64,000 bases of DNA from a bacterium (GTDB lineage Bacteria; Patescibacteriota; Minisyncoccia; Sungbacterales; HO2-52-23): positions 4,686-68,685 of the forward strand of contig JAUYPE010000006.1 of the NCBI GenBank assembly GCA_030697705.1, read 5' to 3'. Position numbers and translations under genes: made by a program. The notes under the pieces are model-generated. The model had not been told where the DNA came from and made no database searches. It saw only the letters and a list, made by a program, of their open reading frames with translations. Shown here piece after piece: positions 2,587 to 58,528 of the stretch (position 1 is its first letter; every line of letters starts with the position of its first letter).

Positions 2587-5500
2587 ATGACCGATAAGGA
2601 GAAAAAAGCGACGATTCCGGAGCGGGAGGAGGCCATTTTGAAGTTCTGGGAGGAGCGGGAGATCTTCCGGAAGTCGGTGGAAAAGAACAAGAAAGGAAAA
2701 GAATTTGTTTTTTACGAAGGGCCGCCAACGGCAAACGGTCTGCCCGGCATCCATCATGTGGAGGCGCGGGCGTTTAAGGATATTATTCCGCGTTATAAAA
2801 CGATGCGGGGATTTTTCGTCCCGCGCCGTGCCGGATGGGATACGCACGGCCTGCCGGTTGAGCTACAGGTGGAAAAAGAGCTTGGCTTAAAAAATAAGCA
2901 GGATATTGAAAAATACGGTATTGGTGCGTTTAACGCCAAGGCGAAAGAATCCGTCTGGCGCTATAAAGAGGAGTGGGAAAAACTGACGAAGCGGATGGGA
3001 TTCTGGATTGATATGGACAATCCCTACATCACGTACAGCGCTCCCTATATGGAGAGTTCGTGGTGGATTATCCAGCAATTCTGGAAAAAGGGTTTACTGG
3101 AGGAGGACTTTAAGGTCGTTCCATGGTGCACGCGATGCGCTACCGGCTTGTCATCTCATGAATTGGCGCAGGGGTATAAAAAAACGACTGACACGGCCGT
3201 GTATGTGAAGTTTAAACTGGAACCCAATCAAAAGATCGGTGATTTTATGACGGATGACAAGACCTATATTCTGGCGTGGACGACAACGCCATGGACATTG
3301 CCGGGGAATGTGGGGTTAGCGGTGAATCCGAAGCTTGAGTATGTAAAGATAAAATGGGCGAGATCCTTCTATAAGACCCAAGAAGGACAGGAATTGCCGA
3401 TGCATCTAGACGAATATTATGTCATCGCAAAAGATATCTTTCTAAAAGTTGCAGAAAAACATCCAGGCGAAACAAATCGCTATGGCTGGCGGGGTCAGAC
3501 ATATGATATTATTGAAACTTTTACTGGGGAAAAGATTGTAGGGCAAAGATACAAGTCACTCTTCCATGTTAGCGAACTCAAAACAGAAACGGCATACAGG
3601 ATATATTCAGCTGATTTTGTTTCAGCGAGTGAGGGTACCGGTGTGGTGCATACTGCGGTGATGTACGGAGAGGATGACTATGTGTTGGGAAAAAAAGTGG
3701 GATTGCCAACATTTCATACTGTTGACGAGGCGGGAAGATTTGTTGGTTCACTTACAGACGGACTTGCGGGATTGTATGTAAAAGATTCCAGAACGGAAGA
3801 AAAAATTCTTGAAATTTTAAAAAGTAAAAACCTTCTCTTTGCGCAGGAAAAGTACGAGCACGACTATCCGTTCTGCTGGAGGTGCGGGACGCCATTGCTC
3901 TACTACGCGCGGAAGGGATGGTGGGTGAAGACGACGAAGGTGAAGAAAGAACTTATCGCGAATAACGAAACAATCAACTGGGTGCCGGAGCATATTAAGC
4001 ACGGGCGGTTTGGCGAATTTTTGCGTGAGGTGAGGGATTGGGCATTTTCGCGCGAGCGGTATTGGGGAACACCCTTGCCTATTTGGAAGTGCCAAAGTGA
4101 AAAATGCGATCATGTTGAGGTTATAGGTTCGCGCACTGAAATGGCCGAACACGGGAAAAAACTTTATAACGAATATTTCGTCATGCGCCATGGCGAGGCG
4201 ATGACGAATAGCAGAGGGATTATCTCATCGGAGGAGAATAAATACCCGCTCACCGCGAAAGGTCGCGCGCAAGTACAACGCGCGGCGGCACGGCTGAAAA
4301 AACAAGGCATTGATATTGTTATCGCCTCGCCGATTTTGCGTACGCGCGAGAGTGCGAAGATAATCGCAAAGATATTGGCTCTACCCGATGAGAATGTGCA
4401 TTTTGATGCGCGATTAAAGGAGATTGCGCTAGGGTCGTATGAAGGCAAAAAGGAGGGAGAGTATCATCGCGCGTTTAAAAATATACGGGAAAAACTTACC
4501 ACCGCGCTCCCAGGCGGCGAATCGCTTGACGAGGTGCGCCGGAGAATGATGGCGGCGCTTATTGATGCGGAGAAAAAGCATGGGGGTAAAAAAATCCTTT
4601 TCGTGAGCCACGACTATCCGTTGTGGATGCTCATGCGCGGAGCGGAGGGGTACTCGGGCGAGGAGGCGATTGCTCTTCGCGAAAATAACGGAAAAGAAAT
4701 GATGCATTGCGGCTATGCCGAGGTCTACGGGCTCACGCATGCCGACCTGCCGCGTGACGAAAAAGGCGAGGTGAATCTTCACCGACCGTATGTTGATGAT
4801 TTTGTTTTTCCGTGCGTAACATGCGGTGGCATGATGCGGCGTACGCCCGAAGTTGCCGATGGGTGGTTTGACTCGGGTGTTATGCCGTTTGCGCAGAGCC
4901 ACTATCCGTTTAGCTCTGTCCGTCATCCTGAACCCTTCGGACACCCTCAGGATAAACTCCGTGAAGGATCCCGTAAGTTAACGGAATTCCTCGCCCCGAC
5001 GATCGGGACTCGGAATGACGAGGGTGGAGGTTTGGCTTTCCCCGCCGACTATATTTGTGAGGGAGTTGACCAGACGCGCGGATGGTTCTATACGCTTCTT
5101 GCTGTCGCAACACTCCTTGGAAAAAAAGCACCATACAAAAATGTCATTTCGCTCGGGCATGTGCTGGATAAAAACGGACAGAAGATGTCCAAGTCAAAAG
5201 GCAACACGGTAAACGCGTTGGAGATTATTGAGAAGTACGGCATTGATGCCCTGCGCTGGTATTTCTACACGATCAATCCGCCCGGCGAGCCCAAAAAGTT
5301 TGACGAACGGGATGTGGCGAATAGATATCGTGGATTCATTCAGACGCTCTGGAACAGTTTTGTTTTGTTTGACACCTATGTCACTTCGGTTCCCGCAAGA
5401 ATTCCATCAACCATAAAACTTTCTATGCTTGATCGCTGGATTCTGGCGCGGATGGATGAGGTGACAGCGGAGGTGACGCGTGCGCTGGATAGATACGATA

Positions 5501-10558: not shown

Positions 10559-10646
10559 GTCCGTCATCCAGAGCGTAGCGAAGGATCCCGTACGATCTCA
10601 GTATACTGAATACTAGCGGGATTCCTCGTTATACTCGGAATGACGG
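10559..10646. repeat. palindromic MITE-like repeat, copy D (intergenic, full length)
   Basis: gtccgtcatccagagcgtagcgaaggatcccgtacgatctcagtatactgaatactagcgggattcctcgttatactcggaatgacgg; terminal inverted repeats ccgtcatcc / ggaatgacgg; central palindrome tcagtatactga. Confidence 0.75.
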
Positions 10647-16948: not shown

Positions 16949-19600
16949 ATGTCAATCATGCGCTACAATCCCAAAAAAATTGAAGCAAAGTGGCAGAAAA
17001 AATGGCTCGCGGAAAAAATCTACGAGCCGGATTTGACTTCTCAACGAAAAAATTCTCGACAAGATCAAACCGTAAAATTGCGCAAACCGTTTTATAATCT
17101 CATGATGTTTCCGTATCCGTCCGCGGAAGGACTCCACATCGGCGGGATGCGGACGTTTACTGGTGTGGATATATACGGGCGCATTAAACGGATGCAGGGA
17201 CATGACGTTTTTGAGCCCATCGGGCTTGATGCATTCGGTATTCACTCGGAAAACTATGCGCTCAAAACGGGGCGGCACCCGATGAAGCAAGCGGTTATTT
17301 TGAAAAAAAACTTCTACCGCCAGCTTGCCGCAATGGGCAACGGTTTTGCGTGGGATGAACGATTAGAAACGAACGATCCGGACTACTACCGCTGGACGCA
17401 GTGGATCTTTGTGCAGATGTTTCGGCACGGTCTTGCGTACCGCAAAAAACAGGCGGTGAACTGGTGTCCTTCGTGCAAAACGGTGCTTGCCGACGAGCAG
17501 GTCATCACGGGGCGGTGTGAACGGTGCGATAGTGAAGTAATGAAAAAAGAACTGGAACAGTGGTTTTTCCGCACGACAAAGTATGCCGAGCGCCTCCTCA
17601 ATAATCTTGAAAAAATTGACTGGTCGGAACGCGTGAAGATTGCGCAGAGGAATTGGATTGGGAAGTCGGATGGCGCAATAATTCGCTTTCCCCTTACCGA
17701 GATTCCCAGTCAGCCCGACGGTAAACATTTTGTTGATGTTTTTACCACGCGGCCCGATACGCTCTTCGGCGCGACCTTTCTTGTGATCTCTCCGGAGCTG
17801 GCGAAATTCTGGATGGATATCGGGTGGCGGGTGGGCGATGATGTGCGCGACTATGTAAAAACCACGCTTGCCGAGCGGGCGATACAAGCACGAGACGCAG
17901 AACCGAAAAAAACGGGCGTGTTCTCCGGCATCTATGGTATTAACCCCGCAAACCAAGAAAAAATTCCCGTCTGGATTGCGGACTATGTGCTCGCCGGATA
18001 CGGTACCGGTGCCATTATGGCGGTACCTGCACACGACGAACGCGATTTTGAGTTTGCAAAAAAGTATAATCTGCCGATAAAAATCGTTGTCTGTCCGCAC
18101 TATCCGGAGAAGACATGTCCGATTTTGGACGAGGCATACACAGGCGAGGGACACTTGGTTGGTTCAAGTGTATTTGATGGTATGACTTCAATTGCCGCGC
18201 GGGCGACTATTGTCAAACATGTCGGCGGGAAGATAACTATTCAATATCGGCTCCGCGATTGGCTGATCTCTCGTCAGCGCTATTGGGGACCGCCGATTCC
18301 GATGATCTATTGCGAGGCATGCGCACGCAATAAAAAAGGTGAGCGAAACGACACGCCCGGGTGGTATACGGTGCCGGAAAAAAATCTTCCGGTGAAACTG
18401 CCATTTATCAAAAACTTTAGACCTACTGGAACGGATCGGTCGCCACTCGCAAGCGTCGCTTCTTTTTATAAAGTTCGATGTCCGGGGTGTAAAAAAGAGG
18501 CGCGGCGCGAAACGGACGTCTCGGATACCTTTTTGGATTCCGCATGGTATTTTTTGCGCTATCCGAATGTAAAGAATAAAAAAGCCGCATGGGATGCGGC
18601 GATAACCAAAAAAATACTTCCCGTTGATTCATACATCGGCGGGGCGGAGCACTCGGTTTTACATCTCATGTACGCGCGCTTTTTGACGATGGCGTTACAT
18701 GATATTGGTGTTTTGAATTTTTCCGCCAAAGGCGGATCCGCCTCCGGCGGAGAAGAACCGTTTCCAAAATTTCGGGCGCACGGATTGATTACCAAAGACG
18801 GTGCGAAGATGTCCAAGTCAAAGGGCAATGTCGTGAGTCCCGACGAGTACATCAAAGCATACGGCGCCGATGCGGTGCGGATGTACTTGGCGTTTTTGGC
18901 TCCCTTTGAGCAGGACGGAGATTTCCGCGATACGGGCATCCGTGGTATGACGCGGTTTCTTGAGCGCGTTTGGCGGATGATGCAAAACTTCTCCAGCCGT
19001 CATCCTGAAGGAGCGAAGCGACTGAAGGATCCCGCAAAGTTACGGGATGCTTCGCCTACGGCTCAGCATGACATACAGCAGGTGCTCCATCGGACGATAA
19101 AGAAAGTTACGGAAGATATAGAGCACCTGCACTACAACACCGCCATTTCCGCGCTTATGGTTTTGCTCAATAGTTTTGAAAAACATCCGGAGGAGGTCGC
19201 GCAAGAATACGGAGGGGTATTTTTAAAGCTTCTGGCGCCATTTGCCCCGCATGTAGCGGAAGAGTTGTGGCAGCAGATGAATGCTCATACTAATGCTAAA
19301 TTAAAAATGCCAAATGATAAAAAAAAGCATTCAGCATTCAGCATTCAGTATTCAGCATTTCGTTCTGTTCATCGCGAGCCGTGGCCGAAATATAATCCAC
19401 GTTTGATCATGGAACAAACGTTTGAACTTGTCGTGCAGGTCAACGGCAAGGTCCGCGGCCGCGTATCTGTTTCTAGAGGAATAAGCGAGGCGGATGTGGT
19501 CGCCACAGCTCGCGCATTGGAGTCGGTAAAACCTTATTTAGCTGCACTGCCAAAAAAAACAATCTTTGTTCCCGATAAACTTGTAAACTTTGTCGTCTAG
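16949..19600 (+). CDS. leuS: leucyl-tRNA synthetase
   Basis: MMFPYPSAEGLHIGGMRTFTGVDIYGR...GLDAFGIHSE...KMSKSKGN; 883 aa; contains MITE copy B and a heptamer SSR in-frame. Confidence 0.92.
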   Translation: MSIMRYNPKKIEAKWQKKWLAEKIYEPDLTSQRKNSRQDQTVKLRKPFYNLMMFPYPSAEGLHIGGMRTFTGVDIYGRIKRMQGHDVFEPIGLDAFGIHSENYALKTGRHPMKQAVILKKNFYRQLAAMGNGFAWDERLETNDPDYYRWTQWIFVQMFRHGLAYRKKQAVNWCPSCKTVLADEQVITGRCERCDSEVMKKELEQWFFRTTKYAERLLNNLEKIDWSERVKIAQRNWIGKSDGAIIRFPLTEIPSQPDGKHFVDVFTTRPDTLFGATFLVISPELAKFWMDIGWRVGDDVRDYVKTTLAERAIQARDAEPKKTGVFSGIYGINPANQEKIPVWIADYVLAGYGTGAIMAVPAHDERDFEFAKKYNLPIKIVVCPHYPEKTCPILDEAYTGEGHLVGSSVFDGMTSIAARATIVKHVGGKITIQYRLRDWLISRQRYWGPPIPMIYCEACARNKKGERNDTPGWYTVPEKNLPVKLPFIKNFRPTGTDRSPLASVASFYKVRCPGCKKEARRETDVSDTFLDSAWYFLRYPNVKNKKAAWDAAITKKILPVDSYIGGAEHSVLHLMYARFLTMALHDIGVLNFSAKGGSASGGEEPFPKFRAHGLITKDGAKMSKSKGNVVSPDEYIKAYGADAVRMYLAFLAPFEQDGDFRDTGIRGMTRFLERVWRMMQNFSSRHPEGAKRLKDPAKLRDASPTAQHDIQQVLHRTIKKVTEDIEHLHYNTAISALMVLLNSFEKHPEEVAQEYGGVFLKLLAPFAPHVAEELWQQMNAHTNAKLKMPNDKKKHSAFSIQYSAFRSVHREPWPKYNPRLIMEQTFELVVQVNGKVRGRVSVSRGISEADVVATARALESVKPYLAALPKKTIFVPDKLVNFVV
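18995..19073. repeat. palindromic MITE-like repeat, copy B (in-frame inside leuS, short form)
   Basis: agccgtcatcctgaaggagcgaagcgactgaaggatcccgcaaagttacgggatgcttcgcctacggctcagcatgac; translated SSRHPEGAKRLKDPAKLRDASPTAQH in the variable linker before the conserved HRTIKKVTEDIE segment; boundaries approximate. Confidence 0.55.
19327..19360. repeat. tandem heptanucleotide repeat (gcattca x about 4.7) inside leuS
   Basis: gcattcagcattcagcattcagtattcagcattt preceded by an A8 run; encodes HSAFSIQYSAF within an expanded loop near the LeuRS C-terminus. Confidence 0.7.
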
Positions 19601-38484: not shown

Positions 38485-38553
38485 AGATTTATTTTTTATG
38501 GTTTAATGCTCCCCAACACCATGTAGTAAAAGATACGCCTAATGTCAAAATTA

Positions 38554-39303: not shown

Positions 39304-39309
39304 AAAGTA

Positions 39310-39393: not shown

Positions 39394-39442
39394 ATTTCAC
39401 GGTTGATGATAGGATAAAAATCTGCTAAAGTAAAGGTATTCT

Positions 39443-40327
39443 ATGCAGAGCAAACTTCCTCAACGAACAAAAAAATTATGCCTTTGTGGATGTGGTGAGG
39501 TGCTCAAAATCCATGAATATACTCGACGGGATAGTGGCGGAGTAAGTTATCTTGTTTATAATTTTGTCATAGGCCATAGCAAGCGGGGCATAAACGGATT
39601 TAATATGGAAATCCACCGTTCGCGCTTATGTCAGTGTGGGTGCGGACAATATACCACAAAGTTCAGAGGACGCCATAATCGTTTTATGAGGAAACACGAG
39701 AATAATGGAAGAGTCCCGTGGAATAAAGGGAAGGCGTTTTCTGATGAAGTAAGAAAAAAGATGAGTCTGGCAAGACTAGGGAAGGAGCCGGCGAACAAGA
39801 CGGTAATAGATTTAATTGCGCTCCATAGACATTATATACATGAAAAAAAGACGATCTCTACGGTGAGTAGGGAGATTAATATTTTAACGGATGCAATTAA
39901 AAATAGACTGCGGGCTTTGGGATGGAGCCGTACCACAAAAGAATCATGTGCGACGGATGCATTTCGTGAGCAGATGCGACAGATAAGAATAAAAACATTG
40001 ACTTCTCGGCAAGCAATAGAGAGTCCAAATAAACTTGAGAAATCAGTGTATGAAGCATTGGATCGGATGAATATCCCCTACGAAAAACAGGTGCCGCTTT
40101 TCGGCAAGTTCGTAGTGGATGTTTTGTTTCCTCAACAGCATCTAGTGCTTGAAATTTTCGGGAGATATTGGCATCGTATGCCTCAAAATGTGAGAAAGAA
40201 CTATTCAAAAAAGAAATACTTGGAAAAATGTGGTTACCGAGTTGAAGAAGTTTGGGATAACGAAATTAAGGAAAAAGGAGTTGATTCTGTGTTGGAGAAA
40301 GTTGTAGAGAAATATGCATTAATATGA
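39443..40327 (+). CDS. homing-endonuclease-like protein: duplicated CxCGCG zinc knuckles + NUMOD3 motif + C-terminal DUF559/Vsr-like PD-(D/E)xK nuclease domain
   Basis: LCLCGCGEV and LCQCGCGQY knuckles; NUMOD3-like VPWNKGKAFSDEVRKKMSLARLGK; C-terminal FVVDVLFPQQHLVLEIFGRYWH...YLEKCGYRVEEVWDNEI resembles DUF559/Vsr endonuclease fold; stop overlaps parA start (ATGA). Confidence 0.6.
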   Translation: MQSKLPQRTKKLCLCGCGEVLKIHEYTRRDSGGVSYLVYNFVIGHSKRGINGFNMEIHRSRLCQCGCGQYTTKFRGRHNRFMRKHENNGRVPWNKGKAFSDEVRKKMSLARLGKEPANKTVIDLIALHRHYIHEKKTISTVSREINILTDAIKNRLRALGWSRTTKESCATDAFREQMRQIRIKTLTSRQAIESPNKLEKSVYEALDRMNIPYEKQVPLFGKFVVDVLFPQQHLVLEIFGRYWHRMPQNVRKNYSKKKYLEKCGYRVEEVWDNEIKEKGVDSVLEKVVEKYALI

Positions 40328-41100: not shown

Positions 41101-41116
41101 GGATTATGTTCGGCTT

Positions 41117-41185
41117 GTCATTGCGAGGAGCCGAAGGCGACGCGGCAATTACAAAAAGATTGCTTCGGCTTCACCTCGCAATGAC
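41117..41185. repeat. 69-bp perfect-ended palindrome between parA and parB
   Basis: gtcattgcgagg agccgaag gcgacgcggcaattacaaaaagattg cttcggct tcacctcgcaatgac; termini resemble the MITE family termini gtcattccgag / ctcggaatgac. Confidence 0.6.
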
Positions 41186-41196
41186 AGTATCAAATT

Positions 41197-47941: not shown

Positions 47942-50080
47942 TCACAAAAGTGCCGATTCGTTTCTCGCCTCCTCAACCGCCTCGCCGAGCATTTGGTAAT
48001 AAAGATTCAAGCCGATTTTATTGATGGCGCCCGATTGCTTGCGACCAAGAATATTGCCCGCGCCGCGGATTTCCAAATCGCGCAGGGCGAGCTGATATCC
48101 TGCGCCAAGTTCGGCGTATTCTTGCAGTGCCTCCAGCCGTTCTGTCGCTTTTTGGGTAAGATGTTTGGGACGATACAAAAAATACGCATACGCCTGATCC
48201 GTCCCACGGCCAATCCTACCGCGGAGCTGGTGCGCCTGCGCGAGTCCGAGCCGCGTCGCGTCGTCTACGATGAGCGTATTGGCAGATGAGATATCCAAAC
48301 CGTTTTCAATAATAGTGGTGGCAAGAAGAATATCTATTTTTCCCTCGCGAAACTCATTCATCGTGCGGATGATCGCGTCTTCCCCCATCCGGCCGTGCAT
48401 GATCGCGATGCGGGGTTTAACCCTTATTCCGTCATCCAGAGTCCCGACTCGTCGGGACGAAGGATCCCGTAAATTAACGGGATTCCTCTCCGCCCCAGGC
48501 GGCTCGGAATGACGGACAAAACGGGTAAATCCCAGCTTAGCTTTTTTTGCAAGCATGCGCTCAAGTTTCTGCTTCACCGCGCCGATCGTTTCTATCCTAT
48601 TATGGAGAAAATAAACCTGCCCGCCGCGTTCGCGTTCGCGAAGAATCGCCTCGGCAATGAGCTTGGCGGAATAAGGGAGGACGAGCGTCTGGATGGCGAG
48701 GCGGCCGGGCGGCGGGGTATCCAGTGTGGAAATGTCGCGAAGCCGCGCAAGGGTAAGTTGCATAGTGCGGGGGATGGGCGTTGCCGAGAGTGAGAGTATA
48801 TCAACATCGGCGCAAATTTCTTTTAAGCGTTCTTTTTGTTTAACACCGAAGCGCTGTTCTTCGTCCAGAATTACCATACCGAGATTCTTGAACGCCACAT
48901 CGCGTGAGAGGAGCCGGTGTGTGCCGATGATGCAATCAATTTTTCCATTCTGCACCTCGTCAAGCATGCGTGTTTGTTCTGCGGGAGAGGCGAGCCGGGA
49001 AATCATGCGGACGGAGACAGGGAGAGCGGCGAATCGCTCGCGGAACGTCCGTTCGTGCTGTGCGGCGAGGACGGTGGTGGGAGCCAAAACGGCGACCTGT
49101 GCGCCGGAGGCGATAATGCGCATCGCCGCGCGGATGGCAACCTCCGTTTTACCGAATCCCACATCGCCGCAGAGGACGCGATCCATGGGTGCATCACGTG
49201 CCATGTCGGCGAGGATTTCGTTTTCCGCTCGCGACTGGTCTTCTGTTTCTTGATAAGGGAAACTTTCGCGGAGTCGTGCTTCCATGTCGTTGTCCCCCGT
49301 GCGGGGAGGGCGCCGTGCGAGGGAACGCTTGGCATAGAGTGCAAGAAGTGCCCGCGCAAGTTTTTCTGTTTCTTCCTTTACTTTTCGTTTGGTATTCATC
49401 CACAGCGAACCGCCCAAACGATGTACGCGGGGTAACTCAAACCCCACATAGGGCGAGAGCCGCTCGTACTGCACGCGCGGTACAAATAGACGATCCGGCT
49501 CCGCTCCCTCGCGCGGCGGCGCGTATTCTATGATGAAAAAGTCATCCGTCGGTATGTCCGTTCCCAAAATGTTTTTTTGCCGCGCGTCTGTCCCCATGCC
49601 GTGAAAGATACCAATGCCGTGGTCAATATGGACGACGAAACTTCCCGGAGCGAGGTTCTCCATCGTTGTTTTTTGCGAGATGCGCGGTTTTGCGTGCGGC
49701 AGTTCTTCCGTCGGCGGGCGCTGGACAAGCGATGCGATCGTATTTCCCGAAAACTCAATCAAATAAGGTACAGCCGTATTAATCGGCCAGATCTCTATGA
49801 CCCCGCCGCGTACGGCGAAAAGCCCGCGACTCCGCACCGTTTGCACGCGCTCATAGCTAAAACCGGATAGCCGCCGTGCAAGTTCCGCCGGCTTCATGAC
49901 CAAGTCCTGCTCAACAAAAAATGCATGCTCCCGCCACCACGGATTCGCCATCCGCGCCTTCTTAATTGATTCCTGATTTTCCGCGTACCACAAAACATCC
50001 CTCTCCAAATTTTGGGGGGTTACCGAGACGATGAGGAGTTCTTGTGGTGGTGCCGCGCCCTGCGGCGCTTTGCCAGCCAT
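47942..50080 (-). CDS. mfd: transcription-repair coupling factor Mfd, short form lacking the UvrB-homology N-terminal domains
   Basis: Walker A CGDVGFGKTEVAIRAA, motif II DEEQRFGV, C-terminal TRCF domain; 712 aa versus about 1150 canonical; contains MITE copy C in-frame. Confidence 0.8.
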   Translation of the reverse strand: MAGKAPQGAAPPQELLIVSVTPQNLERDVLWYAENQESIKKARMANPWWREHAFFVEQDLVMKPAELARRLSGFSYERVQTVRSRGLFAVRGGVIEIWPINTAVPYLIEFSGNTIASLVQRPPTEELPHAKPRISQKTTMENLAPGSFVVHIDHGIGIFHGMGTDARQKNILGTDIPTDDFFIIEYAPPREGAEPDRLFVPRVQYERLSPYVGFELPRVHRLGGSLWMNTKRKVKEETEKLARALLALYAKRSLARRPPRTGDNDMEARLRESFPYQETEDQSRAENEILADMARDAPMDRVLCGDVGFGKTEVAIRAAMRIIASGAQVAVLAPTTVLAAQHERTFRERFAALPVSVRMISRLASPAEQTRMLDEVQNGKIDCIIGTHRLLSRDVAFKNLGMVILDEEQRFGVKQKERLKEICADVDILSLSATPIPRTMQLTLARLRDISTLDTPPPGRLAIQTLVLPYSAKLIAEAILRERERGGQVYFLHNRIETIGAVKQKLERMLAKKAKLGFTRFVRHSEPPGAERNPVNLRDPSSRRVGTLDDGIRVKPRIAIMHGRMGEDAIIRTMNEFREGKIDILLATTIIENGLDISSANTLIVDDATRLGLAQAHQLRGRIGRGTDQAYAYFLYRPKHLTQKATERLEALQEYAELGAGYQLALRDLEIRGAGNILGRKQSGAINKIGLNLYYQMLGEAVEEARNESALL
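48428..48517. repeat. palindromic MITE-like repeat, copy C (in-frame inside mfd, read on minus strand)
   Basis: ttccgtcatccagagtcccgactcgtcgggacgaaggatcccgtaaattaacgggattcctctccgccccaggcggctcggaatgacgga; 90 nt = 30 codons; encodes VRHSEPPGAERNPVNLRDPSSRRVGTLDDG immediately before the conserved RIAIMHGRM segment. Confidence 0.65.
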
Positions 50081-50612: not shown

Positions 50613-51176
50613 TTAACTATTATACTCATTCATGGCGCGACTACCGCCGGTGGTGATGGCGATTTCCAGTGCCACTAGGGTTTTTTTGGCTATTTTCTTA
50701 ATTAATTTTACCTCGTCGGGAGTGAAGTGCTTTAAGACGAGGCGGTCGGCGGGGATGTCGCGCTTGCCCGCGATGCCAATCCGAAAGCGCCAGAATTCGT
50801 TTGTCTTTAGGGCGCGAATGACCGAGTCCACGCCCTTGTGTCCAGCAGAGCGTTTGGCGTATGAAAGTTTGGCGGAACCCAATGCAATATCCGCGTCGTC
50901 GTGGACGAGAAATATATGAGCGGGTTTGATTTTGTAAAACACTGCGATGGGGCCGGCCGCTTTGCCGGAGTTGTTCATGAGCGTATCAGGAAGGGCGAGG
51001 ATGATTTTTTCTTTGCCGATGTTACCTTCACTTATGAGTGTTTTCCATTTTTTTTCCGTGCGAAATTCAGGAAAGTTGTGGGCTTTGGCGAAGTCCATAA
51101 CAACATCGCGTCCCGCATTATGGCGCGTTTTCTCGTATTCTTTTCCCGGATTGCCGAGTCCGATAATGAGGAGCAC
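50613..51176 (-). CDS. pth: peptidyl-tRNA hydrolase
   Basis: MLLIIGLGNPGKEYEKTRHNAG N-terminal Pth signature; 187 aa. Confidence 0.9.
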   Translation of the reverse strand: MLLIIGLGNPGKEYEKTRHNAGRDVVMDFAKAHNFPEFRTEKKWKTLISEGNIGKEKIILALPDTLMNNSGKAAGPIAVFYKIKPAHIFLVHDDADIALGSAKLSYAKRSAGHKGVDSVIRALKTNEFWRFRIGIAGKRDIPADRLVLKHFTPDEVKLIKKIAKKTLVALEIAITTGGSRAMNEYNS

Positions 51177-51197: not shown

Positions 51198-51282
51198 TCC
51201 GTCATTCTGAACGCAGTGAAGAATCCCGTATGATTTCAGTATGTTGAACATTAACGGGATTCCTCGCTTCGCTCGGAATGAC
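51198..51282. repeat. palindromic MITE-like repeat, copy E (intergenic pth/lepB)
   Basis: tccgtcattctgaacgcagtgaagaatcccgtatgatttcagtatgttgaacattaacgggattcctcgcttcgctcggaatga. Confidence 0.75.
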
Positions 51283-51363
51283 AAGAGGGCGAAAAATATA
51301 GTATTTGTAGGATTTTGAGGGTTATTATTTGCCAATAGAGCTTAGGTCAACTATACTCTACGC

Positions 51364-51963
51364 ATGATTGAGAGTAAAGATGGCGAAGTGGGCGAAATGT
51401 CTGCGCCGGAGACACAAAAAAAACCAACACAGGGGTGGTACGAATTTCTCCGCTTTGCCGCCGTCGCGTTGGCGTTGGCGCTTTTCGTCCGCTTTTATGT
51501 CGCCCAGCCGTTTATTGTCCGTGGCGCCTCCATGGAGCCGAATTTCGAGGATCGCGAATATCTCGTCATTGATGAGGCATCGTACCACTTTCGCGAGCCG
51601 GAACGTGGCGAGGTTGTTGTCTTCCGCTATCCGCGGAATACGGATGAATTTTTTATCAAGCGCATTATCGGTCTTCCGGGTGAGCAGGTAGTCATCTCCG
51701 GCGGGCATGTCAAAATAATAAATGCCGCACATCCGGAAGGTTTCGTGCTAGGCGAGTCCTATCTTTCCGCGGATGTGGGAACGTATCTTGACCAGACGAA
51801 GACGCTTGCCGCCGGACAATATTTCGTTCTGGGGGACAACCGCCCCGCCTCCTCCGACTCCCGTGTGTGGGGGGTCTTGGACAGGGGCTTCATCGTCGGT
51901 CGCGTATTTTTCCGTGCATGGCCGCTGACGCGACTGGGTATTGTATTAGACAACGGGCAGTAG
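51364..51963 (+). CDS. lepB: signal peptidase I
   Basis: TM anchor; catalytic Ser box RGASMEPNF; Lys box and GDNRPASSDSRVWG C-terminal box. Confidence 0.85.
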   Translation: MIESKDGEVGEMSAPETQKKPTQGWYEFLRFAAVALALALFVRFYVAQPFIVRGASMEPNFEDREYLVIDEASYHFREPERGEVVVFRYPRNTDEFFIKRIIGLPGEQVVISGGHVKIINAAHPEGFVLGESYLSADVGTYLDQTKTLAAGQYFVLGDNRPASSDSRVWGVLDRGFIVGRVFFRAWPLTRLGIVLDNGQ

Positions 51964-51998
51964 ACGTTTTAATTGGATAATCCTTTTATCCCCCTCTT

Positions 51999-53393
51999 AT
52001 GCCGAAAGCACGAACCGCCGGAGTGCCGTTTCTCATTCCTACCGATCGCCCGCCCGCACGCGAACTTTTGTTTGCGCATATACGCACCACTTTCGGCACC
52101 TTGGCGGGTTTTTACGGATTTAATGCGATGCATGTTGCGCCTCTTTTGGAAGCAAGCACTCTCTCACCGCTTGCCAAAGCGGGATTACTTGAGGAAGTTT
52201 CTCCCGTTACGGCAAAAACCAAGACGGGTGAGGATTTTATCCTGCGACCAAGTACCGTTCTGCTTATCCTTGCCGCGTACGGGCCGTACAAAATGAACGA
52301 CTTGCCTCATCCGCTCAAGGTCTCATGCGGCGGCGAGGTTTTTTCCCTCGGGACGGGAGTCGAGGGACGGCTTAAGACCACCTCCGAGGAGGGGATTGTG
52401 ATGATCGGCGAGGAGGGACCTATTGCCGAAGCCGAGATTGTGCAGGTGCTGTGGCGCGCGTTGCAGGAGTTTGGCGCGAGTGCGGAACGTGTACGTATGG
52501 AGGTGAGTGCAACGGGGTGTACCCAATGTCGCGCGGGATTCCGGTCTTCTTTTAACGCGCACTTCCGCACGCGTCTTGCACGCCTGTGTACGGCATGCAA
52601 GCGCCGGTTTAAAAAAAATCCCACCCAGATACTGACCTGCACCGAAGAAAAGTGCGCTGCGCTCTCGGCAACCGCCCCCTCTATTCTTGATTTTTTGTGC
52701 GAACCGTGCAAGAAACATCTGCGGGGTTTTCTGGAGTTTTTGGATGAGATCGGTATCTCATATTTTCTGGATGCGAAATATTTTCGCGAGGGTTCATGGT
52801 ACCATCAATTGATTTTCCGTATTGTTACCAATGACGCCGAGATTTCCCTGCCGGAGGCGGAGGGAGTCGCCGACGGGATGGTTGCGGATGCACCAACGGA
52901 TGTTCCGACGGTGGCGCCGACCGGCAGTGCCGTGACGCGCCTGCGGGGCATGGTATTGGCCGAGGGTGGGCGCGTCTCCAAAGCAGGGGAGCTACTCGTA
53001 GGGAGACGACTTGATGCGGTGGCGGGGGTGCTTAATCCCGAAAATATTGAACGGGCGCGGCACGCATGGAAACTGCCCGATCCCGAGCCGCCCGTCCCTC
53101 ATATTTTTTTGGCGCAGTTGGGTGAATACGCCAAGCGCAAGAGTATGAATATTTTTGAATTGCTTCGACGCGAGGGCATTCCGGTGCGCGAATCGCTCGG
53201 GCGGGATTCGCTCAAATCCCAGCTCACGGTTGCCGCCAAGATCGGTGCGCGCATGGCGTTGATCCTCGGTCAGAAAGAGGCGATCGACGGAACGGTCATC
53301 GTGCGCGAGGTTGAGTCAGGTATTCAGGAGACGGTTCCGCAAGAGAAGCTTATTGATCTCTTGCGCCGCTACTTGAAAAAAAACGGGGAGTAG
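51999..53393 (+). CDS. hisS: histidyl-tRNA synthetase-like class II aaRS (divergent motif 2)
   Basis: N-terminus GVPFLIP...RELLFAHIRTTFGTLAGFYGFNAMHVAPLLE fits HisRS motif 1; HisRS insertion-domain pattern LDFLCEPCKKHL...GISYFLDAKYFREGSWYHQLIFRIV; AEGGRVSK...AVAGV; C-terminal anticodon-binding domain ...GARMALILGQKEAIDGTVIVREVESG; motif-2 Arg residues are not obvious. Confidence 0.6.
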   Translation: MPKARTAGVPFLIPTDRPPARELLFAHIRTTFGTLAGFYGFNAMHVAPLLEASTLSPLAKAGLLEEVSPVTAKTKTGEDFILRPSTVLLILAAYGPYKMNDLPHPLKVSCGGEVFSLGTGVEGRLKTTSEEGIVMIGEEGPIAEAEIVQVLWRALQEFGASAERVRMEVSATGCTQCRAGFRSSFNAHFRTRLARLCTACKRRFKKNPTQILTCTEEKCAALSATAPSILDFLCEPCKKHLRGFLEFLDEIGISYFLDAKYFREGSWYHQLIFRIVTNDAEISLPEAEGVADGMVADAPTDVPTVAPTGSAVTRLRGMVLAEGGRVSKAGELLVGRRLDAVAGVLNPENIERARHAWKLPDPEPPVPHIFLAQLGEYAKRKSMNIFELLRREGIPVRESLGRDSLKSQLTVAAKIGARMALILGQKEAIDGTVIVREVESGIQETVPQEKLIDLLRRYLKKNGE

Positions 53394-53438
53394 GATATAA
53401 CAGAGTGGCGGGGTTGTTATCCCCCGCTTGTAGTTTTT

Positions 53439-53780
53439 ATGGATGGATGCCTATTTTGCGGAATTGCCGGTGGAGCGGTAAAAACCGAGATGGTTTTTGC
53501 GGATGACGCCGTGTGCGTCTTTCGCGACATCCACCCCAAGGCGCCGGTGCATTTCTTGATCATTCCGCGCGAACATATTGAGTCAATCGCTCATCTGGAG
53601 GAGCATCACGCGGCTATCGTCGCGCAGCTTATCTTTACGGCAAAACGCGTTGCGGCGGAACAGGGGCTTGAGGGCTACAAACTAGTGTTTAATGTCGGAC
53701 GGGACGGTGGGCAGGTCATTGACCATCTGCATCTCCACCTCCTCGGCGGATGGAAAGATGGAGAAAAGATAAGTGGTTAG
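53439..53780 (+). CDS. HIT-family (histidine triad) nucleotide-binding protein
   Basis: HLHLHLLGG histidine triad; CLFCGI N-terminal zinc motif. Confidence 0.85.
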   Translation: MDGCLFCGIAGGAVKTEMVFADDAVCVFRDIHPKAPVHFLIIPREHIESIAHLEEHHAAIVAQLIFTAKRVAAEQGLEGYKLVFNVGRDGGQVIDHLHLHLLGGWKDGEKISG

Positions 53781-53825
53781 TATCAGCTATTTATCATTCA
53801 GCATTTGTAATTTATCATTCTTGTT

Positions 53826-54059
53826 ATGGTTGAAGTACGAAGACGGGAACACGAAACGATAGGTGCGATGTTGCGCCGCTTCACGCGTCGCGTCCAGCAG
53901 TCGGGCGTGCTTATGCAGGTACGCAAAAAGCGCTTCTATAAGTCCGCACCAACCCGCCGCGCCATACGCGCTGGCGCCCTGCGCCGCACCGAGGTGACGC
54001 GCGAGCGAATCAAGCTTCAGAAGCTCGGCAAGCTTAACGAGGAGGAGCGGCGGAAATAA
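53826..54059 (+). CDS. rpsU: 30S ribosomal protein bS21
   Basis: MVEVRRREHETIGAMLRRFTRRVQQSGVLMQVRKKRFYKSAPTRR parallels the bS21 consensus (VxVRENExxDxALRRFKRxxxKAGVLxEVRRRxxYEKP). Confidence 0.8.
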   Translation: MVEVRRREHETIGAMLRRFTRRVQQSGVLMQVRKKRFYKSAPTRRAIRAGALRRTEVTRERIKLQKLGKLNEEERRK

Positions 54060-54078
54060 AGTAGGAGGTGTAATCAGA

Positions 54079-54188
54079 GTCATTCCGAGCGTGAGCGACT
54101 GCCAGGAGGCGTCCCGTGAGGGGGGAATTCCGTTAATATTCAGCATACTGAAATTGTACGGGATCCTTCGCTACGCTCTGGATGACGG
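54079..54188. repeat. palindromic MITE-like repeat, copy F (intergenic, opposite orientation)
   Basis: gtcattccgagcgtgagcgactgccaggaggcgtcccgtgaggggggaattccgttaatattcagcatactgaaattgtacgggatccttcgctacgctctggatgacgg. Confidence 0.75.
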
Positions 54189-54201
54189 AGTTGTTTTTGC
54201 T

Positions 54202-54663
54202 ATGACTCTCCAAGAGCGGATTATCGCAGACATGAAGGATGCCATGCGGGCTCATGACGAGCTCCGTGTTTCTGTTTTGCGGATGCTTATCGCCGCGGTA
54301 AAAAACAAAGAAATTGCCGAGCGGGGACGAGGGAAGAGCGGTGAGTTGTCCGATGATGAGGTTTTGGCGGTATTCAAGACGGAGGTAAAAAAGCGGCGCG
54401 ACGGTGCGGAGGGATTCCGCGTGGGCGGGCGCTCTGAATCTGCGGAAAAAGAAGACGCCGAACGGTTGATGATCGAGCTCTATCTTCCTGCCGAACTCTC
54501 GGATGAGGAGATAAAAAAACTCGTCCAACCGCTTGCGGAAGGACGAGGTGCTGATGAGTTCGGTCGCGTTATGGGTGCGGCGATGAAAGCCGTTGCAGGT
54601 CGTGCGAACGGCGACCGTATCGGTGCAATCGTGAAGAAGATGCTTGGCGGGGTAAAGACCTAG
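54202..54663 (+). CDS. GatB/YqeY-domain protein
   Basis: LQERIIADMKDAMRAHDELRVSVLRMLIAAVKNKEI matches the YqeY N-terminus; ATG at 54202 chosen because the upstream part of the ORF is MITE copy F. Confidence 0.7.
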   Translation: MTLQERIIADMKDAMRAHDELRVSVLRMLIAAVKNKEIAERGRGKSGELSDDEVLAVFKTEVKKRRDGAEGFRVGGRSESAEKEDAERLMIELYLPAELSDEEIKKLVQPLAEGRGADEFGRVMGAAMKAVAGRANGDRIGAIVKKMLGGVKT

Positions 54664-55208
54664 CGGAGACAGCAGAACTGGAAGTCTAATTGATATCGGA
54701 AGCCACTGGTAAGATCTTCGGGATCTTCTGCGAATAGAATACGCTCGGCTCCGCAGATACGAAAAGGATCTCTTCTGTTCCAGTAGCATCTATACTCAAA
54801 ACCATCTTCGATCAGACAATTGGAAATTGGTCCCCGAAACAGAGATGTAGTGTCGACTCTCTTGAGCATGCTCTCCAAAAACGCGAATGTCTTTTTTACT
54901 TGCCTCGGATCTCCAAGAGCATACCCATCATACGCCATGTGTGCAATTGGAACAAAAGGACCGAACTCATCGGTGCGCTCAAAATACATCTCGCGGCCGA
55001 AAAATGGATTATCAAGCGGGCCAGTTCCGTCCCACTGGTCTGTAAAACGCCACTGCGGCCAGCGCTCGTCATTGAATGTATACATCCAGCCGCCATGAGA
55101 AAGTTGTATGGCTCTCGTCTCTCCTCCTGAAGCGTAGGTCTTCTGTTTTGCCGTAACCATGAACTCAAGAAAGTTATGGTCGTCAAGGAGTGTTTTTGGC
55201 TGTGCCAT
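54660..55208 (-). CDS. hypothetical protein
   Basis: 182 aa, W/F-rich soluble protein; no motif recognised. Confidence 0.45.
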   Translation of the reverse strand: MAQPKTLLDDHNFLEFMVTAKQKTYASGGETRAIQLSHGGWMYTFNDERWPQWRFTDQWDGTGPLDNPFFGREMYFERTDEFGPFVPIAHMAYDGYALGDPRQVKKTFAFLESMLKRVDTTSLFRGPISNCLIEDGFEYRCYWNRRDPFRICGAERILFAEDPEDLTSGFRYQLDFQFCCLR

Positions 55209-55228
55209 GGTCTACTTCCTCTCAAAAT

Positions 55229-55636
55229 ATGAAGGTGCATATTCAATCAACACTAACGACTATAATAGATTCTCCATCTAGTTTTGTCAACTCTCTTCCT
55301 GCTATAATCAAGAGACGATTACCAGAAGAGATTGCCATCGTCAGCGTCTCGTCCAAGGAGTCGCAAAAGTTAAACCGTCTCTATCGCACAAAAGACAGAC
55401 CGACGAATGTCCTGTCTTTTTTTTATGATAAAACCTACGGTGAAATTATCGTCTGTCCGGCGGCTATCCGCGCGGAAGCAAGGGTGGCGGGGAATTCTTA
55501 TAAATACCAGATGACATGGATGATAGTGCATGGTATGATCCATCTGGCGGGGGTCCATCATGAAGTATCGGCTATGGCGGAACAGGAGTTTGAACGGATT
55601 GAACGGCGAGCGCGGCAAAACATCAAGAACGAATGA
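55229..55636 (+). CDS. ybeY: rRNA maturation endoribonuclease YbeY
   Basis: Zinc-binding motif HGMIHLAGVHH (H-x-x-x-H-x-x-G-x-x-H). Confidence 0.85.
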   Translation: MKVHIQSTLTTIIDSPSSFVNSLPAIIKRRLPEEIAIVSVSSKESQKLNRLYRTKDRPTNVLSFFYDKTYGEIIVCPAAIRAEARVAGNSYKYQMTWMIVHGMIHLAGVHHEVSAMAEQEFERIERRARQNIKNE

Positions 55637-55637
55637 T

Positions 55638-55958
55638 ATGAACACGGTACCGAAAAAAATACAGGAGGTCGTGGATAAAATTGTTCGGGAGTATCAACCG
55701 GAGAAAATAATTCTCTTCGGCTCATGGGCGTGGGGAACGCCACACGAAGACAGTGATGTGGATTTGTTTATTATGAAAGAGAGCGAGCAAAAAAGGATAG
55801 ATCGCGAGCGAGAACTAAGAAAAAAACTCTATGGTAATAGATTCCCGCCTCTGGATCTGTTTATGTATACACCCGCAGAAACGGCGCGCAGATTATCCAT
55901 GGATGATTTTTTTATAAAGGAAATTATAGAAAAGGGAAAAGTATTGTATGCAAAATAA
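55638..55958 (+). CDS. minimal nucleotidyltransferase (MNT) of an MNT/HEPN pair
   Basis: KIILFGSWAWGTPHEDSDVDLFI = GS...G...S/DxD nucleotidyltransferase motif; 106 aa; overlaps the HEPN gene by 11 nt. Confidence 0.75.
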   Translation: MNTVPKKIQEVVDKIVREYQPEKIILFGSWAWGTPHEDSDVDLFIMKESEQKRIDRERELRKKLYGNRFPPLDLFMYTPAETARRLSMDDFFIKEIIEKGKVLYAK

Positions 55959-57120
55959 ATTTTCTTCTCAAGAACTACTCGTAGCGGAGTGGATTAAACG
56001 CGGAGAAGACGACGAGCAGAATGTTCGTTCAATTCTTCTGCATCGCGATGGCACGCCAAATGCGGCTTGTCTTCTTTCACATCAGATGGCGGAGAAGTAC
56101 CTGAAAGCTTTTTTGGTTTTGACTAAAAAATGGTTTCCGAGAATACATCCATTGGATAAGTTGGTGGAACTTTGTGAAGAAATTGACATTTCTTTTAGAG
56201 AGTTAAATGATACTGCCGCTGATCTCAATCCGTTTTATACTCCCGCGCGATATCCGGGCGATTATCCTGATTTTTCGTGGAAAGATGCTGAAGAAGCATC
56301 TCTCTTAGCATTACGCATTAAAGAATTTGTACTCCCACGGCTTGAAACAGGAAGGGAAAAACAAGAAAAGAATGGTTTTGGTATCATCGGCATTTTGATC
56401 ACCGTTGCGACTATTGTGCTTGTCGGTGGTGGCGGGTTGTATGTGTGGGAGATTCAGCAACAAAAAGCCATTGAACAAATCGGGATTGAAAAAATCAAAG
56501 AAGGTCAAACGGTTCTATTTGGCAACGAAGCAGGCAAACTCTGCGGTCCGCAACCCCCGGTAATCTGTCAGGTGGGATTTGCGTTGGGATGCCGGATTGC
56601 CGACAAGCAATGGGGTTGCTATCCTGTTGATAACAGCGCTGATACCTCCACATGGAAGACCTACCGGAATGAAAAACATGGGTTTGAGGTGATGTATCCA
56701 ATTGGATTTACATTAAGTGCTGAAACAGAAAATGAAATAATATTTACCCACCGTCTGATAAGCGGATATCAAATTAGTATAAAAAAATATAATTGCGAGA
56801 ATATTAGCATTGATCGATGTAGTGTGCAAAACATTTTTGATGTTTCTAGGGAATCACTAGATGAGGTAATTGAAAACCACGAGTTCGTTAGTGAGGCACA
56901 GACGATAATAGTTGCTGGGCAAAAAGCCAAGACATTCACCTGGTTTACGATAGGAGATGGAGCGCGCTTGATACTTGTACCCCATCCAACAAAAAAATAT
57001 TTATATGATATTGGTGTGTCTTTTGGATTTGATCCGGGAAGTGGTAGAAACCGAGAAGATGTAGCACTGGATACTGAAACTGTTTCGATGCTCATCAATA
57101 GCTTCAAATTTACCAAATAA
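55948..57120 (+). CDS. HEPN-domain protein fused to a transmembrane segment and a 230-aa C-terminal extracytoplasmic domain
   Basis: N-terminal 130 aa: HEPN-like helices and ...LSHQMAEKYLKAFL...; then TM GFGIIGILITVATIVLVGGGGLYVW; Cys-containing beta-rich C-terminal domain; no stop codon or obvious internal start between the parts. Confidence 0.55.
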   Translation: MQNKFSSQELLVAEWIKRGEDDEQNVRSILLHRDGTPNAACLLSHQMAEKYLKAFLVLTKKWFPRIHPLDKLVELCEEIDISFRELNDTAADLNPFYTPARYPGDYPDFSWKDAEEASLLALRIKEFVLPRLETGREKQEKNGFGIIGILITVATIVLVGGGGLYVWEIQQQKAIEQIGIEKIKEGQTVLFGNEAGKLCGPQPPVICQVGFALGCRIADKQWGCYPVDNSADTSTWKTYRNEKHGFEVMYPIGFTLSAETENEIIFTHRLISGYQISIKKYNCENISIDRCSVQNIFDVSRESLDEVIENHEFVSEAQTIIVAGQKAKTFTWFTIGDGARLILVPHPTKKYLYDIGVSFGFDPGSGRNREDVALDTETVSMLINSFKFTK

Positions 57121-57142
57121 TTTTAGGACTTACGCATTTTAT

Positions 57143-57233
57143 CCGTCATTCAAGGTGTAGCGAAGGATTTTTCGTACGATTTCAGTATACTGAAAATAGT
57201 AACGGGATTCCTCGCGGGTGCTCGGAATGACGG
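57143..57233. repeat. palindromic MITE-like repeat, copy G (intergenic upstream of ftsA)
   Basis: ccgtcattcaaggtgtagcgaaggatttttcgtacgatttcagtatactgaaaatagtaacgggattcctcgcgggtgctcggaatgacgg. Confidence 0.75.
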
Positions 57234-57292: not shown

Positions 57293-58528
57293 ATGGCGGC
57301 GCGTACTATTATTGCGGCATTGGATGTGGGTACCTCAACCGTGCAGACGGTTGTGGCGGAGCGTGCCCGCGGGGAGCAGGAGCTCCATATTTTGGGTGTA
57401 GGCATCGTGCCGTCGCAGGGTATTCGCCGCGGCGCAGTGGTTGATCTGGAGGAGGCGACAGCCGCGATTCGGGCATCAGCCGAGGCGGCGAGCCGCGCGG
57501 CGGGCGTACCGGTAACATCGGTGTGGCTTTCCGTCGGCGGATCGCAGGTTTCCGTCTCGTCTTCGCGGGGTGTTATTGCCGTCTCGCGTGCGGACGGGGA
57601 AATCTCGCCCGAGGATGTGCGGCGCGCTATTGCGGCGGCCGAGACATTCGTCCCGAGAAATCCCAATAAAGAGACGCTCCATATCATTCCCCGCGATTTC
57701 AAAGTGGACCACGAGAGCGGGGTGAAGGATCCCGTGGGGATGCACGGTGTGCGGCTGGAGGTGGATACGCTTATTATAGAGTGCTCTAGTCCGTTTTTAA
57801 AAAATCTTATTAAATGCGTGGAAGGGGCGGGACTTCGCGTTGAGGATTATGTATTCGGACCGCTTGCTGCCGCCGAGGTGGCGCTCACGAAGCGGCAAAA
57901 AGAACTTGGTGTCATGCTGGTGGATATCGGCGGCGGGACGGCGAGTTTTATTATTTTTGACGAGGGAATGCCAGTGCATGCTGGTGTTTTACCCGTAGGC
58001 GGGATGCACATTACCAACGATGTTGCCATTGGATTTCGTACGCATGTGGATGTCGCCGAGGCGATGAAGTGCACGCATGGCTCATGCTTGCCTACGCTCT
58101 TCACTAAAAAAGACAACATCCGGCTTGCGGAATTCATACCTGACGAGAGCGCGGTCTATTCGCGCCGTGAGCTTGCCGAAATGATCGAGGCGCGACTTCA
58201 TGATATCTTTGAACTGCTTCGCAAGGAGCTCAAAAAAATAGATCGGCGCCACTTACTTCCGGCTGGCGTCATTCTTACGGGAGGGTCATCGGTTTTACCG
58301 GGTGTGGTGCAGGCGACGCGCGAGGAGTTCGGTTTGCCCGTGGAGGCTGGGCAGCTCCATATGGGGGATAATTTGGATGAGCGGCTCACGCCTTCCCTTG
58401 CCGCCGCATGCGGTGTGCTTGCATGGGCGAATCAGCACACGACCACCTCCTTCTCTCTTTTTGAGGAGCACTCGCTTCGTGTGCGGAAAAGCAAGGTGGT
58501 GAGGTGGCTTAAATCTCTCCTGCCCTAG
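57293..58528 (+). CDS. ftsA: cell division protein FtsA
   Basis: Actin-fold N-terminus IIAALDVGTSTVQTVVAE...; ...DIGGGTASFIIF...; 411 aa. Confidence 0.9.
   Translation: MAARTIIAALDVGTSTVQTVVAERARGEQELHILGVGIVPSQGIRRGAVVDLEEATAAIRASAEAASRAAGVPVTSVWLSVGGSQVSVSSSRGVIAVSRADGEISPEDVRRAIAAAETFVPRNPNKETLHIIPRDFKVDHESGVKDPVGMHGVRLEVDTLIIECSSPFLKNLIKCVEGAGLRVEDYVFGPLAAAEVALTKRQKELGVMLVDIGGGTASFIIFDEGMPVHAGVLPVGGMHITNDVAIGFRTHVDVAEAMKCTHGSCLPTLFTKKDNIRLAEFIPDESAVYSRRELAEMIEARLHDIFELLRKELKKIDRRHLLPAGVILTGGSSVLPGVVQATREEFGLPVEAGQLHMGDNLDERLTPSLAAACGVLAWANQHTTTSFSLFEEHSLRVRKSKVVRWLKSLLP

Follow-up and report, generated by a model that had tools for sequence, protein, structure and literature searches.

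The closest described counterparts of the elements analyzed here are the repetitive extragenic palindromic sequences (REPs) that carry an unpaired CGTC tag, with TGTC and CCTC as variants (Di Nocera, De Gregorio and Rocco, 2013; BMC Genomics 14:522; PMC3733652). In that survey, a unit has an 8–9 bp stem that nearly always starts with complementary A and T, a loop of 4–5 nt and a 3-nt tail with the consensus CCA, and units are arranged chiefly as head-to-head (HH) dimers with the tags outside, often as heterodimers with structured spacers. The survey reports copies that lie in frame within genes, especially those for DNA repair and tRNA synthetases, finds no dedicated transposase, and gives Proteobacteria, Chlorobi, Bacteroidetes, Spirochaetes and Thermotogae as host phyla; Rickettsia conorii RPE-6 and RPE-4 correspond there to CGTC-1 and CGTC-4, and the superfamily takes in Neisseria dRS3. 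We analyzed seven palindromic loci (copies A–G) and one related dimer in a 64-kb stretch of the bacterial contig JAUYPE010000006.1; the whole stretch is termed the window, and the scans of this genome for copies, transposases and insertion sequences (ISs) cover the window alone. The seven loci are probably HH dimers of CGTC-tagged REP units, that is, small non-coding palindromic repeats organized like REPINs (REP doublets forming hairpins).

The window elements share with CGTC-tagged REPs the CGTC or TGTC tag, the A–T opening of the stem and a short C-rich tail. All eight are HH dimers, mostly heterodimers, with structured spacers and no transposase of their own in the window, and, as in the superfamily, most copies are intergenic and some lie in frame in tRNA-synthetase and repair genes. 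They differ in their host, a member of the Candidate Phyla Radiation (CPR), in spacers of only 8–30 nt, and in that three of the seven copies lie inside genes.

Three other systems bear comparison. REPINs and bacterial interspersed mosaic elements (BIMEs) that accompany a REP-associated tyrosine transposase (RAYT) (Bertels and Rainey, 2011; Nunvar et al., 2010) are likewise dispersed, inverted palindromic doublets with the potential to form a long hairpin, and REPINs also have a conserved tetranucleotide at the hairpin foot and no target-site duplications. That tetranucleotide is GT[AG]G in REPINs, whereas it is CGTC or TGTC in the window, where no RAYT is found; REPINs are lineage-specific, whereas the sequence of the window elements is conserved across phyla. 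Rickettsia palindromic elements (RPE-1 and others; Ogata et al., 2000) are, like the copies studied here, in-frame palindromic inserts that a reduced genome carries in essential genes and that are tolerated as additional peptide segments on the surface. RPE-1 is longer (~100–150 bp), however, and the window elements are a different sequence family whose superfamily is abundant also in free-living soil bacteria, whereas the Rickettsia elements have intracellular alphaproteobacterial hosts. MITEs (miniature transposable elements with inverted repeats) derived from ISs, such as Correia elements and Nezha, are similar in size, terminal inverted symmetry, dispersal and RNA-fold potential, but the window elements have neither target-site duplications nor a cognate IS, and their arms are self-complementary units.

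Unit structure, covariation and copies in the window

Each unit starts with a (C)GTC tag, which is followed by a stem with an A–T opening, three covarying pairs, a tandem G.A/A.G step and two further pairs, then by a loop and a CCCG tail. The loop is a three-base GNA, often of the GCGAAGC type, or is expanded to an inner hairpin; d(GCGAAGC) forms a DNA mini-hairpin of unusual stability. In the canonical arm (51255–51282), 5 bp, the G.A/A.G step and 2 bp closing a 3-nt loop give nine stacked positions, seven of them Watson–Crick, and many arms are expanded by 8–50 nt. An element of 76–111 bp is built from two units in inverted orientation, their tags facing outward, around a short structured spacer whose CCCG and CGGG ends pair. 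Nearly all arms have a CCC(G) tail; since the tails of a dimer are complementary, they are not necessarily unpaired.

Every window arm reads GTC-AT...AT-C. The tag is CGTC in 11 of the 14 arms of copies A–G, TGTC in two (the right arms of B and E) and AGTC in one (F, at 54078), and both arms of the dimer between parA and parB are tagged TGTC. All seven copies are heterodimers, the two arms having different stems. The left arm of copy A carries an extra module, CCCTCAGGATAAACTCCG, and its right arm an inner hairpin, CCCGACGATCGGG; the right unit of B has the covaried stem ATGCT..AGCAT, and the spacer hairpin of D is TCAGTATACTGA. The spacers of D–G share the hairpin TTCAGTATACTGAA, and the two arms of these four copies can pair with each other to form one long hairpin. 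In copies A and C, the arms carry different inner hairpins, those of C being non-complementary to each other, so that a four-way junction alone is possible.

The complementarity of the stem was conserved as its sequence changed. The motif GTC-AT-abc...c'b'a'-AT occurs 21 times in the window, compared with 6.8±2.6 in shuffles, and 16 of the 21 occurrences are the arms of the eight elements. In 82 elements from other phyla, a set in which no search pattern constrained the 3′ half of the left arm, the left-arm triplet was matched by its own complement in 64 cases (19.6±3.5 when permuted); the right arm of this set is always ATTCC..GGAAT because the search pattern fixed it. Nine triplet types remain complementary (CCT, CCC, GTC, TCC, TCT, CTC, TTC, GCT and TGC), with stems such as ATGTC..GACAT, ATCCT..AGGAT, ATCCC..GGGAT, ATTCC..GGAAT, ATTCT..AGAAT, ATCTC..GAGAT and ATTTC..GAAAT. 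When 50 arms from several phyla were aligned, 93.3% of the cells were paired vs. 79.6% in shuffles, and 51 cells had changed on both sides vs. 15.2±2.9, a value matched by 0 of 500 shuffles. The pairing was ≤56% in slid-register controls, and the pairs at columns 5/34 and 4/35 were 100% standard and 78% A–U, respectively.

A reading made earlier from the sequence alone had placed seven copies of a palindromic family with shared boxes at these loci, and all seven were present within 1–2 nt of the positions it gave. The loci align over the termini and the inner boxes. The terminal box CTCGGAATGACG has 17 matches in the window at ≤2 mismatches (6.5±2.3 in shuffles), and the inner box GAAGGATCCCGTA has nine (1.3±1.1 in shuffles); copies C, D, E, F and G fold far better than shuffled sequence (z −4.7 to −7.9). 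With the filters off, a covariance model of the unit recovered 13 window arms at E≤4e-7 (both arms of A–F and the right arm of G), five of which were outside the seed alignment; neither arm of copy A was in the seed, and they scored 28.8 and 27.0 bits. One arm of the parA–parB palindrome, whose termini had been called related, was recovered at E=9e-5. This palindrome is a sister dimer with the same unit grammar and the stem ATTGC..GCAAT. The next match has E=0.13, so the total is seven copies and one sister (Table 1), with no lone units and no further copies in the covariance scan of the window. A putative eighth copy at 57714–57735 was rejected, being a mere 22-nt box match within ftsA that the covariance model did not detect.

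Table 1. Position, orientation and setting of the eight dimers in the window
Element	Coordinates	Strand	Units	Setting
Copy A	4920..5021	+	4922-4973 (+), 4982-5019 (-)	inside IleS open reading frame (2587-6282, +)
Copy B	18997..19073	+	18999-19034 (+), 19043-19072 (-)	inside LeuS open reading frame (16949-19600, +)
Copy C	48429..48515	+	48431-48469 (+), 48478-48513 (-)	inside Mfd-like helicase open reading frame (47942-50080, minus strand)
Copy D	10561..10646	+	10563-10590 (+), 10617-10644 (-)	intergenic, 50 nt 3′ of MazG-like gene
Copy E	51199..51283	+	51201-51228 (+), 51255-51282 (-)	intergenic, between divergent pth (50613-51176, -) and signal peptidase (51364-51963, +)
Copy F	54078..54188	- (reverse orientation)	54079-54132 (+, expanded arm), 54159-54186 (-)	intergenic, S21 stop (54059) to YqeY start (54202)
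Copy G	57143..57233	+	~57145-57172 (left, degenerate), 57203-57231 (right, -)	intergenic, HEPN-domain gene (stop 57120) to ftsA
Sister-family HH dimer	41116..41186	unassigned	41117-41149 (+), 41156-41185 (-)	between parA and parB

Copies A, D and E, three of the seven, have the extra bases (C/T)TGTCC before GTCAT, with no counterpart in the right flanks; this could mean that such targets are weakly preferred or that the left end extends slightly further.

Copies read in frame in IleS, LeuS and Mfd

Copies A, B and C lie inside open reading frames (ORFs), as had been claimed, and share one reading frame relative to the element, RH[PS]E...[ND]D. A and B are read in the sense and C in the antisense direction relative to the polarity of the element. 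Copy A is read in IleS as SSVRHPEPFGHPQDKLREGSRKLTEFLAPTIGTRNDE, copy B in LeuS as SRHPEGAKRLKDPAKLRDASPTAQHD and copy C, on the minus strand, as RHSEPPGAERNPVNLRDPSSRRVGTLDD; RHPEPFGHPQDK exemplifies the peptides that in-ORF copies would encode. The window IleS has ~33 extra residues between HYPF and FPAD when compared with the solved IleS 8c8u, and Mfd has ~43 when compared with 13jq/6m6a. Among 27 aligned Mfd proteins (the window protein, P0001, and 26 orthologues), the insert is present in P0001 and in an 84%-identical relative only. The closest LeuS orthologue (76% identity) is without the element, and the site is a variable linker. An AlphaFold model of Mfd, of modest quality (mean predicted local distance difference test score, pLDDT, 66), has no secondary structure at residues 517–553, where pLDDT is <50, which is consistent with a tolerated loop. 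A search with the 42-residue product of copy A against 1.84 billion proteins gave no match at E≤0.001, the query being too short to be informative.

Independent CGTC-type inserts occur in the same or other loops of other CPR orthologues, namely P0065 (RHPKLHEGSRKDSSPAAQND), P0124 (..GTARND) and P0103 (..GTRND).

The sequence-only reading had also proposed that the intergenic copies contain stop codons lacking in A–C, the pattern expected from selection for open frames. All four intergenic copies are indeed stopped in the RH[PS]E...[ND]D frame, but when the six frames are considered only D is closed throughout, E and F having one open frame each and G two. Selection for stop-free variants within ORFs is a reasonable explanation, and the data are consistent with it, but it draws on three vs. 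four copies, and three of the four intergenic copies keep an open frame.

Other insertions were observed in these proteins and their orthologues. IleS (1231 residues) holds a complete His_Phos_1 domain (E=4.7e-35) inside its catalytic domain (residues 531–697, ~4177–4677), and many LeuS orthologues from related CPR members have NUDIX or alpha/beta-hydrolase domains (950–1170 residues). Tandem ATTCAGC heptamers in the 3′ part of LeuS (19315–19373) are translated as HSAFSIQYSAF, within an insertion missing from most orthologues; related heptamer runs lie at 53789–53819 and 5891–5920, one of them inverted. Other palindromic repeat families are seemingly translated in CPR orthologues (NPVR...SNG-type, VIPAKAGIQ...PGMT and EIASS...PRN), and a further repeat, GGATTCATCCCGTTAGAGA, flanks IS200 copies; the proteins and loci concerned are P0010, P0110, P0214 and P0158 and L126, L128 and L129. 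In-frame repeat insertion may be general in the CPR.

Distribution among phyla and turnover between relatives

A 23-base pattern for the right half of the element, CGGGATTCCTC-N(2-30)-CTCGGAATGACG, was searched in a one-genome-per-species collection. The matches listed include >116 loci in at least seven other phyla. The hosts among them are mostly Udaeobacter and other Verrucomicrobiota, with Binataceae, Acidobacteriota, cultured Hymenobacter strains and Chitinophagaceae (Bacteroidota), Burkholderiaceae, Chloroflexaceae and Bdellovibrionales. No more than nine of the 82 elements from other phyla lie within long open frames. The left-arm module of copy A, CCCTCAGGATAAACTCCG, recurs in two Udaeobacter loci (L020 and L081). 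No match was found in a collection of 72,556 plasmid records (distant blastn), and viral contigs gave two matches only. In one Acidobacteriota metagenome-assembled genome (MAG), three ~184-bp tandem repeats each hold one complete CGTC-type dimer (L052, 141–700); copies elsewhere are dispersed.

A contig of MAG GCA_034376815.1 and two Logan assemblies match the window at 99.99–100% identity. For the window's Mfd and LeuS, the nearest proteins carry the labels Candidatus Sungbacteria or Parcubacteria, and the host is therefore a CPR member; it is a groundwater bacterium with a tiny genome. Its gene content is a compact housekeeping set (Pfam scans), and the host lineage has a few hundred genes. 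A literature search gave no report linking REPs or MITEs to CPR genomes, a 2025 REP survey (PMC12306157) contains no description of such repeats in them, and searching the literature for the literal element sequence returned primer coincidences only.

The window was compared with the fetched stretches of a related groundwater genome of ~84% nucleotide identity (loci L120, L121 and L133–L135). Copies occur in this relative and the superfamily in many phyla, so the family that had been proposed extends beyond the seven loci and stands out from shuffled sequence. Copy C is present in the relative at the orthologous site. Copy F is present in the same S21–YqeY spacer but is reverse-complemented (L120 5855–5990 vs. 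window 54078–54188): 97 positions match over the 113-nt window copy when it is reversed, whereas the same orientation aligns poorly. A derived arm insertion is common to both copies of F, and in the relative a further 23 nt are inserted into the spacer loop of the element. Copy B is absent from the relative, and D, E and G were undetected in the fetched stretches, where they are not clean empty sites because the spacers differ in gene content. Clean empty sites sought for B, E and G gave none, the loop or spacer having diverged or the gene content being different. The relative has sister-family dimers at other sites, including a second in-frame site in its Mfd. Of two metagenome pattern scans with window-specific spacers, one was empty and the other returned the known relative alone.

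The sole transposase-like gene of the window (35644–36120, +; Y1_Tnp, E=9.5e-17) is assigned by NCBIfam to IS200/IS605 and not to RAYT, and covers profile positions 42–125 of 126. It has HUH and Tyr motifs and overlaps the start of a Mur ligase gene on the other strand. The true start of this tnpA is most likely an ATG near 35828, giving 97 residues, and it is therefore an N-terminally truncated remnant. Full-length relatives (143–154 residues) lie on contigs of <2 kb, and the ends of these relatives are the classical IS200-type hairpins CCACGGGCTTGCCCGTGG. This gene was rejected as a partner: the ends of its relatives are unlike the CGTC unit, and no CGTC units lie near the window copy. No RAYT gene flanked by cognate REPs (a REPtron) was found in the window.

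Adjoining the IS200 remnant, the region ~36000–40300 has a low GC content (0.42 vs. ~0.52 elsewhere) and looks like an acquired island. It encodes a Na/Ca exchanger, a VTT-domain protein and a DUF559 endonuclease-like protein, and an ORF with a weak LAGLIDADG match adjoins or overlaps tRNA-Leu(CAA) (39309–39394). Elsewhere, a 69-nt direct repeat of 87% identity (28586–28654 and 29397–29465) brackets a small ORF for a retropepsin-like aspartyl protease (28928–29377).

Weighing the origin of the elements

The sequence-only reading had labelled the family MITE-like while leaving open MITEs, REP-like elements and regulatory RNA structures; the second option proved to be the right one. Classical MITEs would be IS deletion derivatives moved in trans by a DDE transposase acting on CCGTCAT.../...ATGACGG. 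Terminal inverted repeats, a size of 76–111 bp, dispersal and an occupancy that varies between relatives are what such an origin would give, but we consider it very unlikely. None of the eight elements has a target-site duplication: seven are without any flanking direct repeat of ≥3 nt, and B has one offset 4-mer, consistent with chance. The autonomous partner that had been suggested was not found either, since no IS with matching terminal inverted repeats is present in the window (Pfam, ~50 ORFs) or in 116 related loci, and in Verrucomicrobiota, paired elements enclose housekeeping genes (FolD-like, QueC-like) and no transposase. The "inverted repeats" are complete self-folding units with covariation within each arm, which IS ends do not need, and the two arms are usually of different unit types. 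The published survey likewise associates no transposase with the superfamily (PMC3733652). Roles at the level of host DNA, in which the elements would be bound or cut by a nucleoid protein, gyrase or the partition machinery or would form cruciforms, appear just as improbable. The elements are palindromic at the DNA level, the sister copy occupies precisely the gap from parA to parB, and, according to work cited in PMC6006769, IHF and gyrase bind to E. coli BIMEs; against this stand the strongly different occupancy in two close relatives and the copies inside ORFs. A general chromosomal role is also argued against by the ~50-fold variation in copy number among species given in the survey (PMC3733652). 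The elements are, besides, unlike the parS consensus.

Somewhat less remote, though still unlikely, are cis-acting structured RNAs kept by the host for 3′-end protection, attenuation or as processing sites, with the in-ORF copies as by-products. The gene pairs around copies D, F and G are co-directional, with each copy following closely downstream of an ORF, the folds are strong, and the survey mentions REPs of other bacteria reported to act at the RNA level (PMC3733652). Yet F, flanked by the same genes in two relatives, has opposite orientations in them, which is tolerable only if its function is strand-symmetric; A and B are sense whereas C is antisense; and E may be outside any mRNA 3′ end because it lies between divergent genes. 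Across phyla, the gene contexts in which this sequence is found are unrelated. In an Rfam 15 scan of the window, tRNA-Leu was the only match at gathering score, and at E≤10 the elements matched spurious miRNA models alone and no RNA family. A tRNA-like four-way junction was rejected, ARAGORN calling tRNA-Leu only, and a terminator role was rejected since no intergenic element has a convincing T-run of its own; the right end of F with its T-rich flank gives one weak terminator-like match, and a separate terminator-like hairpin follows G. A promoter role was rejected as well, the promoter scan being near background.

Several observations weigh against reading the loci as selfish dimers of CGTC-tagged REP units. 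The stem has two non-Watson–Crick positions (G.A/A.G), the loop is of 3 nt and arms are expanded, unlike the units of the described superfamily; the tail is CCC(G) instead of CCA, and the tails pair with each other. The window units fit the superfamily by its published description, and the assignment made here is to the superfamily as a whole and not to one of its four named families, CGTC-1 to CGTC-4. Nearest-neighbour energies give the unit hairpin little stability (−2.7 kcal/mol as DNA, z=−0.3), and support for it comes from covariation, not energy. As no enzyme was identified, mobility is deduced solely from the differences between two genomes, none of which is a clean filled-vs.-empty site. 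Copy C is 93.0% identical between these genomes, compared with 79.9% and 84.7% for its flanks; five of its six substitutions are unpaired (binomial P=0.003), the remaining one being C to T opposite G. All six combined alter four of 28 residues, so that copy C is conserved at the level of nucleic-acid structure and not of the peptide. This preservation, which the RNA explanation would also predict, indicates selection on structure and could reflect a host function rather than pure selfishness.

The REP-dimer reading nevertheless remains the one we favor, and from the above we infer that the elements move through single-stranded DNA, that an enzyme acts on them in trans and that the in-frame copies are nearly neutral. 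The elements would be selfish, REPIN-like DNA that is gained, lost and re-oriented via a single-strand hairpin intermediate. When single-stranded, an element may form either a single long, imperfect hairpin or a four-way junction, and a putative enzyme recognizing tag and hairpin probably acts on this intermediate. Copies would persist where harm is small, that is, in the short intergenic spacers of a compact genome, and stop-free variants in the RH..ND frame would persist in permissive loops of IleS, LeuS and Mfd. The elements are best described as palindromic DNA of a known kind, selfish or semi-domesticated, whose host phylum is new.

A bolder version, to which we give a small chance, is that CGTC REP dimers form one ancient, still active family that spreads across phyla via an unrecognized single-stranded-DNA enzyme, universally conserved or phage-carried. 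The exact 23-base right half is common to CPR, Verrucomicrobiota, Acidobacteriota, Bacteroidota and others. If this version were true, a small CPR genome with gain, loss and inversion of copies would narrow the candidates for the CGTC-REP enzyme.

New with respect to the literature searched are (i) the CPR host; (ii) near-identical copies across soil phyla; (iii) the covariation support; (iv) the inversion of copy F; and (v) the structure-level conservation of copy C. The elements extend a poorly understood repeat superfamily to the CPR and to abundant soil phyla. Length variation of essential CPR proteins such as IleS, LeuS and Mfd comes partly from palindromic-repeat insertion and not from functional domains, which is relevant for annotation, alignments and structure prediction; such repeats also give spurious ORFs and break assemblies. 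The search for the enzyme that moves CGTC REPs becomes more tractable in a genome this small with evident copy turnover.

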